Source of the DNA: Octopus vulgaris | Taxonomy: Eukaryota | Direction: 5' to 3' | Assembly: GCA_951406725.2 (NCBI GenBank) | Contig: OX597825.1 | Coordinates: 69,378,001 to 69,442,000 of the forward strand | Length of the DNA: 64,000 nt | Shown: piece by piece, positions 21,634 through 53,285 of the stretch | How positions within the stretch are numbered: the stretch's first letter is position 1 | Layout of the letters: each line of letters begins with the position of its first letter | Notes under the pieces: model-generated | Seen by the model: the letters and a program-made list of their open reading frames with translations, nothing else | Databases searched by the model: none | What the model was told of the DNA's origin: nothing | Made by a program: the position numbers and the translations under genes

Positions 21634-21694
<61 letters not shown>

Positions 21695-21697
<3 letters not shown>

Positions 21698-22231
21698 AAA
21701 TATTGAGTTTCTAAATCTCTCGTAGAGAGGTGTACGGTGGTGGAGCGATATAATGGTTGTATACTGTCAATCTAACAAGAACGTGACAGTAGGGGTACAC
21801 CACCGTTATATAGCCCTAGAAGGCATCGAACGCCTCCTGACAGCTTCGACACATTTTATCCTGTATCCTTATATACACATACGAAGGGGAGACAAACACC
21901 CCCAACCGCCGGAACTGCATCTAGGGACACCGTGTTTCAGGATCATTGTCCTTCATCGGCCTAGAGTAGCAGACACCGGTCCAGATATCGCCAGCTGACC
22001 GGTGTCTGCTACTCTAGGCCGATGAAGGACAATGATCCTGAAACACGGTGTCCCTAGATGCAGTTCCGGCGGTTGGGGGTGTTTGTCTCCCCTTCGTATG
22101 TGTATATAAGGACACAGGATAAAATGTATCGAAGCTGTCAGGAGGCGTTCGATGCCTCCTAGGGCTATATAACGGTGGTGTACCCCCTACTGTCACGTTC
22201 TTGTTAGATTGACAGTATACAACCATTATAT
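21695..22231. mobile_element. Head-to-head inverted pair of a hammerhead-bearing Penelope-like/retrozyme-like element within (TA)n
   Basis: Arms 21748-21981 and 21997-22231 are near-identical reverse complements with a 15-bp spacer; hammerhead at 22014-22057 (+) and 21921-21964 (-). Confidence 0.85.
22014..22057 (+). ncRNA. Type I hammerhead motif, CCGAUGA core variant
   Basis: ctagg-CCGATGA-aggacaatgatcct-GAAAC-acggt-GTC-cctag; stems I and II perfect. Confidence 0.75.
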
Positions 22232-31823: not shown

Positions 31824-32240
31824 AAGGCGGCGAGCTGGCAGAAACGTTAGCACGCCGGGCGAAATGCTTTGCGGTATTTCGTCTGTCGTTACGTTCTGAG
31901 TTCAAATTCCGCCGAGGTTGACTTTGCCTTTCATCCTTTCGGTGACGATAAATTAAGTACCAGTTACGCACTGGGGTCGATATAATCGACTTAATCCGTT
32001 TGTCTGTCCTTGTTTGTCCTCCCTGTGTTTAGCCCCTTGTGGGTAGTAAAGAAATAGGTATTTCGTCTGGCGTTACGTTCTGAGTTCAAATTCCGCCGAG
32101 GTTGACTTTGCCTTTCATCCTTTCGGTGTCGATAAATAAAGTACCAGTTTCGCACTGGGGTCGATGTAATCGGCTTAATCCCTTTGTATGTCCTTGTTTG
32201 CCCCCTCTATGTTTAGCCCCTTGTGGGCAGTTAAGAAATA
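31824..32240 (+). mobile_element. SINE family A dimer with 15-bp TSD, inserted into an RTE 3' region
   Basis: TSD tataaggttttgcaa at 31805-31819 and 32241-32255. Confidence 0.9.
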
Positions 32241-48515: not shown

Positions 48516-49479
48516 TAAAACATGAAGAAGAAGAAGAAGATGAAGAAACAACAAAAGCTATAAAACAAATGAAATCCAAACTAAAAATAGAACAGCAACG
48601 AACCATGATAAAACGATGGCAAGAAAAGCCCCTTCATGGTAAATACTGGACTAAACTAAACGCAAAAGAAATAGACAAAGAAAAATCCCAGCAATGGTTG
48701 AGAAGCTCAGGACTCAAAGCAGAAACAGAGGGATTTTTAATTGCAGCACAAGACCAAAGCCTCCCCACCAGAAATTACCAAAAACATGTAATGAAAAGAA
48801 ATATTACAAGTAACTGCAGAATATGTGGAGATGGACAAGAAACAATAAATCATATTATCTCTAGCTGCCCAGTCCTGGCTAAGAAGGAATATATTCACAG
48901 ACATGACAGAGTTGGAACCTACATACATTGGAAGCTATGCCAACATTATGGAATAACAACAGAAAAAAGATGGTATAGGCACACACCAGAAAAGGTCACA
49001 GAAAACGAGAAAGCAACCATACTCTGGGATATGCCGATACACACAGATAGATAAATTAAGGCCAACAGACCAGATATAGTTGTCAGAGATCATGAAGAAA
49101 AAAATGCTTTCTAATTGATGTATCAATACCGGCTGATGACAACGTGTCTCTAAAAGAAATGGAGAAACTCTGAAAATACAAAGACCTGGAAATAGAGGTA
49201 ACTAGAATGTGGAATCTGAAAACAGAAACAATTCCTATCATAGTAGGTGCATCAGGCATGATAAAAAATATTCAGACAAATACATAACAAAAACACCAGG
49301 ACTTACAAACACATATAACATACAGAAAATTGCACTACTAGGCACTGCACACATCCTACGCAGAACACTTTCCATACAATAACCATCAGAGCATCACAAC
49401 AAATCACAGCACATACCCAAGGCACACAGAGCTGTGCTCGGTAGTGAAGTGAAAGCACGCTATAAAAATAAAACTACTG
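48516..49479 (+). mobile_element. R4/Dong-type LINE 3' part inserted in (TAA)n
   Basis: WQEKPLHG, LKAETEGFLIAAQDQ, CCHC knuckle CRICGDGQETINHIISSC, RHD, NRPDIV...IDVSIP...EK..KYKDL restriction-like endonuclease; in-frame stops near 49052 and 49171; (TAA)n on both sides. Confidence 0.93.
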
Positions 49480-49514
49480 AATAATGATAATAATAATGAT
49501 AATAATAATAATAA

Positions 49515-49792
49515 CTGATGTAATTGATCTATCAATACCAGCAAATGACAACGTTTCTCTAAAAGAAATGGAGAAACTTACAAAATACAAAGACTTGGAA
49601 ATAGAGGTAACTCGAATGTGGAATCTAAAAACAGAAACAATTCCTATCATAGTAGGCGCATTAGGTATGATAAAAAAATATTCAAACAAATACATAACAA
49701 AAACACCAGGACTTAAAACTATATATAACATACAGAAACTTGCACTACTGGGCACTGCACACATCCTACGCAAAACACTCTCAATGGCGTAA
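49515..49792 (+). mobile_element. Second, shorter R4/Dong-type fragment in tandem
   Basis: IDLSIPANDNVSLKEMEKLTKYKDLEIE...LLGTAHILRKTL, closely similar to 49115-49381. Confidence 0.9.
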
Positions 49793-50846
49793 CTATGATA
49801 ACAGAATTGAGAGTAGAGAATTAAGGAGTTCTGCCGAAATTAAATGACGTGGAGGTCAATTTTATGATCCGCTGTCTCCGATCAATGCACTTAGTATTTC
49901 TCGACCGAACCAGGGTCGAATCTAATACACAAAATAATCCTGATTGGAAATTGCTTTTCATTATAAACCGCTGTAATAACTGAAGACTTGTCTTCAAACA
50001 ACAACAAAAAAAACAACAACACATATAACCAGAATCAGTATTTTAATGGGATCAAATTAATAGGGTTTTTATTAATCCCTGCTTTATCCATATAGGGATT
50101 TGTGGAAAAGCATAAAATAGTTGGAGTGAAGTGATATTTTAAATACAGCAAAGTTTTCCTATATCATAGCTAAAAGTTAAGTTTGGTGAATTACCAACGG
50201 ATATTAGTTTGGCAACATTATGGGGAAATATTTGCTAATTAATCACAAGTGACACAGATCAAAGTCAGATATTGAAATAACTATGAGATGTAATTACTTG
50301 GAAATGGGTAACACGATGCTATAACTCCAAGTAAGCAATTCCAGTAATTATCACAGAATTTTGTTATCGGTAAATTGAAGCCATTTACATACTATACGGT
50401 CTAAGTGAAAACTCTAAAACCTACTCGTCAATTAGAGACCTAAAAAGGGATTAAGGAGGAAAATTTACGATATCTGATATAATAGATACATAACTGGCAG
50501 CACGTATTTGATGAGTTTTATCGATCATAAATTTTGAAGCAAAATATGAAATAATTGTAAAACAGCAAAAAAGAAAAAAACCCACGTATGACTGGATATA
50601 AAATTTGAAGTTATCAATATGGACTCGGTGAGTTTTTAATATTTTACGAGCTATTTAACCATCAGTGAAGTAATAGATGCAAGCTTGCACGAGGGATTGT
50701 ATTAATTACATTGCAATATTATTATTTATTTATAGGGAAAGGATATGGTGGTTACTATGAATTGTGAAGTGTCAAAACAACACTAATATAGATATGTAAA
50801 TGTGATGATATATACGCATACATACATACATGCTTGTATACATACA

Positions 50847-50882
<36 letters not shown>

Positions 50883-50987
50883 TACATCTATAAATATATG
50901 TATATATATATATGTATGTATATATAATTATTGGAAATGGATGCGCGGCGGAGTTCAATCATATAATAATATAAATAATATATATAT

Positions 50988-51759
50988 AATTAATTGTTAT
51001 CGCCATATTAATATGGCATTCTTATAGATATAAGAATAATCGCTGCCGCTGGCCAGCTCTATGAGGCCACCGCCATCAAGATAGCTATTGATACACGATC
51101 TGTATCCATTATAACCTTCGAACAAGGGAGGTCAGCCGCTTCACACTGCCAGTCCGACAGCTACAGACGCGTTTCGGGGTATTGCCCCTTGTCAATGTAG
51201 CGCAGTCAGACCCGCAGGTGTCGCCACTGACGTCTCTCTTCGAAGGTTTCTATTTACCTAGTTTCAGTGGAATACATCCACTTGTTTTCAATAATAGAAA
51301 TATTAAAATTACTAAGTCTCTATAAAAGAGATTACGGCAGCGTTTACTGGAAATTAATTGTTATCGCCATATTAATATCGCCATATTAATTTCTATTATT
51401 GAAAACAAGTGGATGTATTCCACTGAAACTAAGTAAATAGAAACCTTCGAACAAAGACGTCAGTGGCGAAACCTGCGGGTCTGACTGCGCTACATTGACA
51501 AGGGGCAATACCCCGAAACGCGTCTGTAGCTGTCGGACTGGCAGTGTGAAGCGGCTGACCTCCCTTGTTCGAAGGTTATAATGGATACAGATCGTGTATC
51601 AATAGCTATCTTGATGGCGGTGGCCTCATGGAGCTGACCAGCGGTAGCGATTATTCTTATACCTATAAGAATGCCATATTAATATGGCGATAACAATTAA
51701 TTTCCAGTAAACGCTGCCGTAATCTCTTTTATAGAGACTTAGTAATTTTAATATTTCTA
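50988..51759. mobile_element. Inverted pair of a circularly permuted 364-nt hammerhead-bearing monomer (retrozyme-like) within (TA)n
   Basis: Left arm repeats aattaattgttatcgccatattaat at 50988 and 51352; right arm repeats tttcta at 51390 and 51754 (both period 364); hammerheads at 51160-51201 (-) and 51489-51530 (+). Confidence 0.85.
51489..51530 (+). ncRNA. Type I hammerhead, U3-A8 core variant
   Basis: gctaca-TTGACAA-ggggcaatacccc-GAAAC-gc-GTC-tgtagc; stems I and II perfect, palindromic ACGCGT stem III. Confidence 0.8.
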
Positions 51760-51798
<39 letters not shown>

Positions 51799-52798: not shown

Positions 52799-52809
52799 CA
52801 CATATATAT

Positions 52810-53253
52810 ATAAAAAAGAAGTTTGAAAACGCGACTATATAAGATAAATTTTAATTTTATTTGAAATTTTACATGTTTCGGTTCTTCTTGAAAAAACGAA
52901 TCTTATCAAAATTATTTTAAAACGTGAAGTGTAATAAAAAAGTTCATAGTTGTTTCTTACTGGTCTCAACAGAATCGTCCTATGTGTTCGAATACAACTA
53001 AAGAAAAATCTTTACTTTTTCTTTAGTTTTATTCGAACACATAAGACAGCTGTTATACTTACTCCCCACAAAATAAAAACAACGTGGATTCTGTTGAGAC
53101 CAGTAAGAAATAATTATGAACTTTTTTATTACACTTGACGTTTTAAAATATTTTTGATAAGGTTCGTTTTTTCAAGAAGAACCGAAACATGTAAAATTTC
53201 TAAGAAAATTAAAATTTATCATATTTAGTGGTGTTTTCAAACTTCTTTTTTAT
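52810..53253. mobile_element. Head-to-head inverted pair of an AT-rich hammerhead-bearing element within (TA)n, with a nested inner palindrome
   Basis: Arms 52810-52976 / 53087-53253; inner arms 52977-53011 / 53017-53048; attt-TTGATAA-ggttc...gaacc-GAAAC-at-GTA-aaat at 53150-53197. Confidence 0.8.
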
Positions 53254-53285
53254 AAATATATACCTACTCGTATACGACCTACACT

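Follow-up and report, generated by a model that had tools for sequence, protein, structure and literature searches.

How a short sequence without coding capacity comes to lie in a genome as a head-to-head pair, with a hammerhead ribozyme in each arm, is the question raised by one locus of Octopus vulgaris. The window, a stretch of 64,000 nucleotides (assembly GCA_951406725.2, contig OX597825.1, positions 69,378,001 to 69,442,000 of the forward strand), contains at positions 50988-51759 an element that a first-pass annotation, made from the letters alone, had described as an inverted pair of a 364-nt ribozyme unit and had read as a candidate retrozyme, reverse transcribed from a circular or multimeric RNA from different start points. 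Our analysis of this copy and its genomic relatives indicates that it is a non-coding 364-nt hammerhead element, present as a partial tandem with an inverted copy, which was likely inserted in trans by the reverse transcriptase (RT)/GIY-YIG protein of an autonomous Penelope-like element (PLE).

The element consists of two arms of one 364-nt unit joined head to head, with unit position 1 at window position 51396 and unit position 364 at 51759. The 364-nt period is visible in both the left and the right arm, and the inverted stretches 50988-51301 and 51389-51702 (314 nt) are 97% complementary, which bears out the inverted pair that had been described. The left, inverted arm (51381 to 50988, minus strand) runs from about unit position 278 to 364 and then from 1 to 307, ending at a short 3′ end without a tail. 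The right arm (51389-51759, plus strand) starts with the final 7 nt of an upstream unit (358-364), continues into a complete unit (1-364) and ends at a long 3′ end; the tail of about 57 nt that separates the two 3′ ends (51703-51759, plus strand) is found in this arm only. At the inversion junction (51362-51390), a 14-nt tandem duplication lies at a palindromic hairpin, in agreement with the small duplication recorded there before. TA repeats adjoin the copy on both flanks, and a possible target-site duplication of 11 nt (left 50977-50987, right 51759-51769 within (TA)n, both on the plus strand), as read from the sequence, is unprovable inside such a repeat.

Each arm carries a hammerhead of the minimal type I. 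The right-arm motif (51489-51530, plus strand) has a U3-A8 core and a palindromic helix III, and its predicted cut lies after 51524, at the GUC (51522-51524) that had been pointed out earlier; the left-arm motif (51160-51201, minus strand) has its predicted cut between 51166 and 51165. The parts are a stem I of 6 bp, the core UUGACAA, a stem II of 4 bp with a 5-nt loop, GAAA, ACGCGU and GUC. A relaxed hammerhead descriptor gave just two matches in the window, one per arm, and Rfam gave no match at its gathering score. Since ACGCGU is unable to close a hairpin, a dimer is required for cleavage, and the hammerhead is accordingly predicted to cut as a dimer only. Among 232 motifs of the family, position 3-8 was U-A in 223, U-G in 5, C-G in 2 and C-A in 2, 215 had a palindromic helix III, in six palindromic variants, and compensatory swaps between G-C and A-U were seen in stems I and II. 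Ribozymes of PLEs are reported to have the same U3-A8 and dimer-type helix III, and to come in pairs, separated by 100-700 bp, with the two members on opposite strands (Cervera and de la Pena, 2014, PMC4209133).

The unit RNA is predicted to be strongly self-paired. Its fold reached −139.6 kcal/mol (z = −8.7), with none of 100 shuffles as good, and the circular fold gave z = −10.3 (60 shuffles); the unit ends pair with each other across the unit junction. A long rod with the hammerhead at its tip is predicted at 51442-51577 (plus strand, unit 47-182). No open reading frame (ORF) of more than 47 aa lies wholly within the element.

To see the window copy against its family, the genome (2.8 Gb, 227 contigs) was searched. 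The 40-nt ribozyme occurs in 200 exact copies, against none for the reversed control, and among 2081 candidates the best 40 share 96-98% identity with the window copy. We then read 103 distinct loci, 35 of which were chosen for a full-length match and the other 68 for the ribozyme pattern, after removal of 12 overlapping duplicates. The results showed that the 3′ ends of their 173 arms fall at two fixed sites about 57 nt apart: 88 arms terminate within unit 360-364 and 64 within 302-310, the remaining 21 ending elsewhere, so that the two sites account for 152 of 173 arms (101 of 115 in the ribozyme-picked loci). Head-to-head pairs are present at 62 of the 103 loci, and in 43 of them a long end is paired with a short one (long and other 14, short and other 3, short and short 2, long and long 0). 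The 5′ ends are scattered, with clusters at unit 80-89, 167-181, 250-261 and 330-345; all of these lie at predicted stems, the second at the 3′ foot of the rod, which suggests stalling of the RT. Arms reach up to 3.6 units (at least two units in 9 of 173). A microsatellite adjoins 86 loci. At 25 loci a target-site duplication was called; about 11 of these duplications lie clear of simple repeats and have lengths of 11-14 nt. The window copy is an ordinary member of its family.

These ends bear directly on the proposal that the arms are permutations of a circle begun at different points: the starts of reverse transcription are fixed, and just the stops vary. Lineage markers agreed in 113 of 114 comparisons between inverted arms and in 64 of 66 between tandem units, and therefore both arms of a locus derive from one template lineage. 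About 30 of the 173 arms belong to a subfamily of 82-90% identity. Beyond the subfamily of the window copy (A), relatives of the unit were found as subfamilies E (84.5%), B (83.5%), C (72%) and D, the last past the reach of blastn. Subfamily B (362 nt) has the same two 3′ ends as A. Subfamily D (355 nt) aligns along the unit and was also detected by a profile that included D itself; it ends near 344 and 391 of its query and forms a 10-unit array. The unit is also largely covered by contigs from sequencing runs labelled as two other organisms. In runs that we guess to be RNA, fragments of the family occur as contigs, which give no indication of ends, strand, level or circles. Inserts in two copies (L012 and L008), considered as longer forms of the element, were rejected as unrelated insertions.

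Fixed ends, a tail and inverted pairs constitute the published signature of PLE insertion, which identifies the unit as a non-autonomous PLE-type element, of the class called non-LTR (long terminal repeat) retrozymes. The published features comprise partial tandems, an adjacent inverted 5′-truncated copy, a tail of 30-40 bp on one end and a bias towards microsatellites (Craig, 2021, PMC8557442), and a PLE protein in vitro cuts and extends both strands of AT-rich DNA, starting at two sites inside the RNA, between which the tail lies (Frangieh, 2024, PMC11167929). The family data match this mechanism in every point except the length of the tail. Besides the unit and the structure of its copies, we observed fixed ends, TA-rich targets, duplications of 11-14 nt and covariation in the ribozyme, and we propose the following course. 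A PLE protein would nick both strands of AT-rich DNA, and each nicked end would prime reverse transcription inside an RNA of more than unit length, one at about unit 364 and the other at about 306. Both cDNAs would extend 5′-wards over the unit junction and stop variably, often at strong hairpins, and their head-to-head joining would leave the 57-nt tail on just one of the two arms. The two arms would come from the same sub-lineage, likely from one RNA. Multimeric transcripts may be processed by the dimer-only cutting, in which case a monomer or circle would be stable. The retrozyme reading of the first-pass annotation is thereby kept as to the short non-coding hammerhead unit, the more-than-unit template and the non-LTR retrozyme class, and given up as to random starts on a circle.

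The genome contains candidates for such an enzyme. PLEs were collected by PF01541 (148 matches; 30 loci and 28 further stretches read) and by three protein searches of 30 loci each, which together yielded at least four young families of RT-GIY-YIG elements whose frames are long and open. They end in (TA)n and have hammerhead-like motifs in which helix III is palindromic; in one of the families there are two ends, separated by 36 nt. A linker of the C-x4-C-x2-C type led us to name them Neptune-type, from the published description and not from a tree. In one family (L179-L208), 76 scored copies are 100% identical over 573 aa, many with the full 775-aa frame; judged by this identity, its activity is very recent. 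The ribozyme-like core of that family often reads CCGAAGA in place of CUGAAGA. Another family, of 781 aa (L064:268-1704), has a second, upstream frame of 479 aa without a Pfam match at the cut-off.

Several observations weigh against insertion by a PLE enzyme in trans. At 56-58 nt, the tail exceeds the published length of 30-40 nt. No sequence similarity was found between the unit and the four young PLE families (blastn and a five-subfamily profile) or about 50 other GIY-YIG loci, the census being incomplete; profile matches inside PLE loci looked like separate neighbouring insertions, three of which (L049, L155 and L157) were read base by base. No accumulation of 5′ ends was seen at the ribozyme cut (of 165, 2 fall at unit 128-133, p = 0.76, and 8 at 128-140, p = 0.25; 8 arms starting at unit 1-3 were omitted), so there is no genomic sign of cleaved RNA as a template. 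Choosing 35 of the 103 loci by full-length match favours the long end. Finally, core and closing G-C pair are preset in the motif descriptor and the copies are related, so that the covariation counts are not independent.

Which form the template takes is the first point at which another explanation has to be considered. Ribozyme-cut monomers might be ligated to 364-nt circles around which the PLE enzyme rolls from its two start sites, a sub-case of trans-insertion that we regard as possible and do not favour. Arms that cross the unit junction and reach 3.6 units, shared lineage markers within a locus, the pairing of the unit ends and the absence of a pile-up at the cut, which an endless template would produce, all accord with circles, and circular RNAs of 350-390 nt have been shown for mussel retrozymes (PMC7229834). 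However, uncleaved linear multimers from a homogeneous tandem locus give the same predictions; a PLE studied in vitro worked mainly on unprocessed RNA and could do without the ribozyme (PMC11167929), and minimal PLE-type ribozymes cleave weakly in vitro (PMC4209133). In one locus (L007), moreover, the tandem pair differs at a compound lineage marker, for which a single circle would need a template switch. Circle and uncleaved linear multimer both fit, and this locus leans slightly to a linear template or to template switching.

A second explanation, that the unit is the terminal repeat (pseudo-LTR, pLTR) or a deletion derivative of an existing autonomous PLE outside our sample, appears unlikely. 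Xenopus retrozymes are related to the pLTRs of PLEs (bioRxiv 10.64898/2026.07.22.740005), and our PLE searches scored the best 40-150 of thousands of candidates. None of the 103 loci, however, runs on from the unit into a PLE ORF or a LINE (long interspersed nuclear element) ORF, and the PLE matches nearby are separate insertions. The first-pass annotation had named fixed ends together with extension into a long coding PLE as evidence against its own reading; the former is what we observed, and the latter was seen at none of these loci. The family is also old (relatives at 83, 84 and 72%, one past the reach of blastn) and was in every case found as short or LINE-interrupted units.

The LINE-interrupted units were an unexpected finding: relatives of the unit, at 83-89% identity, are specifically targeted by Tx1-like LINEs. 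Tracing subfamily D led to these LINEs, of 5.2-5.4 kb. These long elements were first considered as the parent of the unit, a candidate that was rejected as they proved to be LINEs inserted into it. The family that targets subfamily E has an open ORF1 of 493-496 aa (Pfam zf-CCHC) and an ORF2 of 1132 aa (Exo_endo_phos, RVT_1, zf-RVT), and it inserts at unit 83/84 of E, about 10 nt 5′ of stem I and in the same sense, with a duplication of about 16 nt. In a search with the LINE 3′ untranslated region (UTR), 40 of 80 candidates were scored and 30 fetched. All 19 of these at ≥97% identity, together with L324, are followed by the E site: the E unit follows in 17 and the next LINE copy in 3, and 5 copies stand in one array, which leaves 16 loci. 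The remaining 10 copies (83-96%) are not in E, and one of them is followed by a U1 gene; a sister LINE family is followed by a U2 gene. In a tree of 28 natural copies, all from this genome (rooted at the midpoint, after removal of one short row), the E family clusters with the copies at U1 and U2 (100/100). The D-flanked copies belong to the other clade, together with copies inserted at unrelated sites; the D-flanked set was chosen by its flanks and so gives no measure of site specificity. Sister copies were observed at the extreme 5′ end of U2 and U1 small nuclear RNA (snRNA) genes identified by Rfam (L285:6764-6957, L286, L329:1736-1899), and others at varied sites and in 5.3-kb tandem arrays (C5:29178956 on, C9:59204176 on, C27:38302800 on).

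At the same site of subfamily B, an element of 1.7-2 kb (L362-L371) was found in 15 of 36 pattern matches, and nine loci were read. It has an ORF1-like frame with 27-32% identity to the LINE ORF1, no Pfam match and no ORF2, and on these comparisons is likely a non-autonomous Tx1 derivative. Subfamily A gave no Tx1-like insertion (0 of 36 pattern matches, 0 in a further search, and 0 of 103 loci with LINE DNA nearby, although other 3′ ends could be missed), and its target site sequence is changed; in the window copy the equivalent site (51463-51478, plus strand) is empty and differs in sequence. The unit family also serves as a fixed landing site for Tx1-like LINEs, as observed for the relatives E, B and D but not for subfamily A.

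The intact LINE copies are flanked by unit sequence on both sides, and internal priming in A/T-rich sequence could mimic a fixed second end, which raises the question of whether the unit is rather a UTR or a derivative of the LINE resembling a short interspersed nuclear element, moved by the LINE and inverted by twin priming. This is largely refuted and very improbable. The same LINE (99.8%) stands in arrays with just the 16-nt duplication between copies (L284), 5′-truncated copies (L376 and L288) retain the upstream unit and the duplication, sister LINEs occupy U1 and U2 genes and unrelated sites, and the LINE has its own 3′ end, which contains AATAAA and differs from the unit ends. The unit is therefore the target of the LINE, and the truncated copies, which keep both target halves, reflect the LINE's own insertion. 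A different history is suggested by the sequence of one clear case (L359), where the LINE breaks off at the inversion point and is followed at once by an inverted E arm, the upstream target being absent: here a LINE piece appears to have moved as a passenger of the unit. L371 resembles this case for subfamily B. That the unit is instead a DNA element (a miniature inverted-repeat transposable element or Helentron-like) or a satellite whose hairpins mimic a ribozyme is scarcely credible, for although its inverted structure, hairpins and TA targets would fit, the copies are polar with fixed 3′ and ragged 5′ ends, the hammerhead helices and core covary strand-specifically, and there are no terminal inverted repeats of fixed length.

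Insertion of the unit by a PLE enzyme and its use as a LINE target could together form a system of three layers, which we put forward tentatively and with some doubt. The unit would ride on the PLE enzyme; LINEs of the snRNA lineage would have switched at least twice to the site about 10 nt upstream of the ribozyme, where they may be co-transcribed, have both RNA ends cut by the flanking hammerheads and be spread as passengers by the reverse transcription of PLEs; and the young subfamily of the window would be an escape variant whose target site has changed. The arrangement may be likened to R2, which uses the transcription of rDNA together with its own ribozyme.

Other repeats were noted in the window. 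At 52802-53261, 1 kb from the 364-nt element, the 3′ end of the 781-aa PLE family is present as an inverted pair with 175-nt arms (93%). This pair has a U3-A8 hammerhead-like motif in each arm and 84-92% identity to PLE loci; it is a separate PLE-type insertion. At 21688-22195, within a TA repeat, lies a near-perfect inverted pair with a hammerhead-like C3-G8 core; it is distantly related to the unit (profile E 7e-17 and 1e-13) and represents a further family. Positions 514-593 match the tail region weakly (E 3e-6). A direct repeat of about 410 nt in two copies (86-91%) and a 184-nt two-copy tandem were seen at 49112-49803 and 31873-32240, respectively.

The interest of the system rests in how cleanly it displays the mechanistic signature and in the LINEs for which the family is a target. 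The two-start signature of PLEs is seen on more than 100 young insertions of the 364-nt family, and a 364-nt RNA with mapped starts, present in the same genome as four candidate intact PLE proteins, makes the question of the retrozyme enzyme testable in vitro. That animal retrozymes derive from or depend on PLEs has been proposed before (PMC7229834), mostly for vertebrates from co-occurrence and pLTR similarity (bioRxiv 10.64898/2026.07.22.740005), and the enzyme that moves them and the route via circles are stated in both sources to be open. The Tx1-like LINEs add a class of target that is absent from the literature searched. They have an intact ORF2, their sister families occupy U1, U2 and other sites, and they form a natural series for how an APE endonuclease changes its target; they may also be a case of one class of retrotransposon carried by another. 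Targeting of snRNA genes and of other transposons by Tx1 elements is already known (PMC4494074). We found no paper on Tx1 elements in ribozyme repeats in our literature search, nor on cephalopod hammerhead repeats in literature listings; both may be catalogued in Repbase, supplements or subscription journals.

Compared with the animal non-LTR retrozymes (Cervera and de la Pena, 2020, PMC7229834; Li, Clavereau and Pollet, 2026), the element is alike in its non-coding unit of a few hundred nt (head to tail, within the range of 150-450 nt), in one type I hammerhead per unit, in tandem copies, in a strongly self-paired RNA and in the proposed mobilisation by PLEs. It differs in that its ribozyme is of the minimal, non-canonical PLE type (U3-A8, dimer-type helix III), that its copies mostly comprise 0.5-2 units and an inverted arm in place of long arrays, and that the two-start tail signature is measured directly here. 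With the endonuclease-bearing (EN+) PLEs of the Neptune type (Craig, 2021; Frangieh, 2024) and non-autonomous Chlamys elements such as MRC1, it shares partial tandems with variable 5′ truncation, an inverted 5′-truncated copy, two fixed 3′ ends with the tail on one end, AT-rich or microsatellite targets and a ribozyme near the 3′ end. In contrast to autonomous PLEs, the unit has no ORF, an RT and GIY-YIG frame being present in none of the 103 loci, and its tail is of 56-58 nt and not 30-40 nt; non-autonomous Chlamys usually share a 3′ end with an autonomous family, whereas the unit has no detectable similarity to any sampled autonomous family. The LINEs in E and D, with a CCHC ORF1 and an APE-RT-zinc ORF2, resemble Keno (U2 snRNA), Xenopus Tx1 (Tx1D) and Tx1-Mar (Mariner-N4) (Kojima, 2015, PMC4494074) in these proteins and, for the E family, in a fixed site in a multicopy target, a duplication of about 14-16 nt, tandem arrays and sister copies at U1 and U2. 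Unlike those elements, they have as their target a ribozyme-bearing retroelement, entered in the same sense about 10 nt 5′ of its ribozyme, and they can apparently be carried by the target's own mobilisation.
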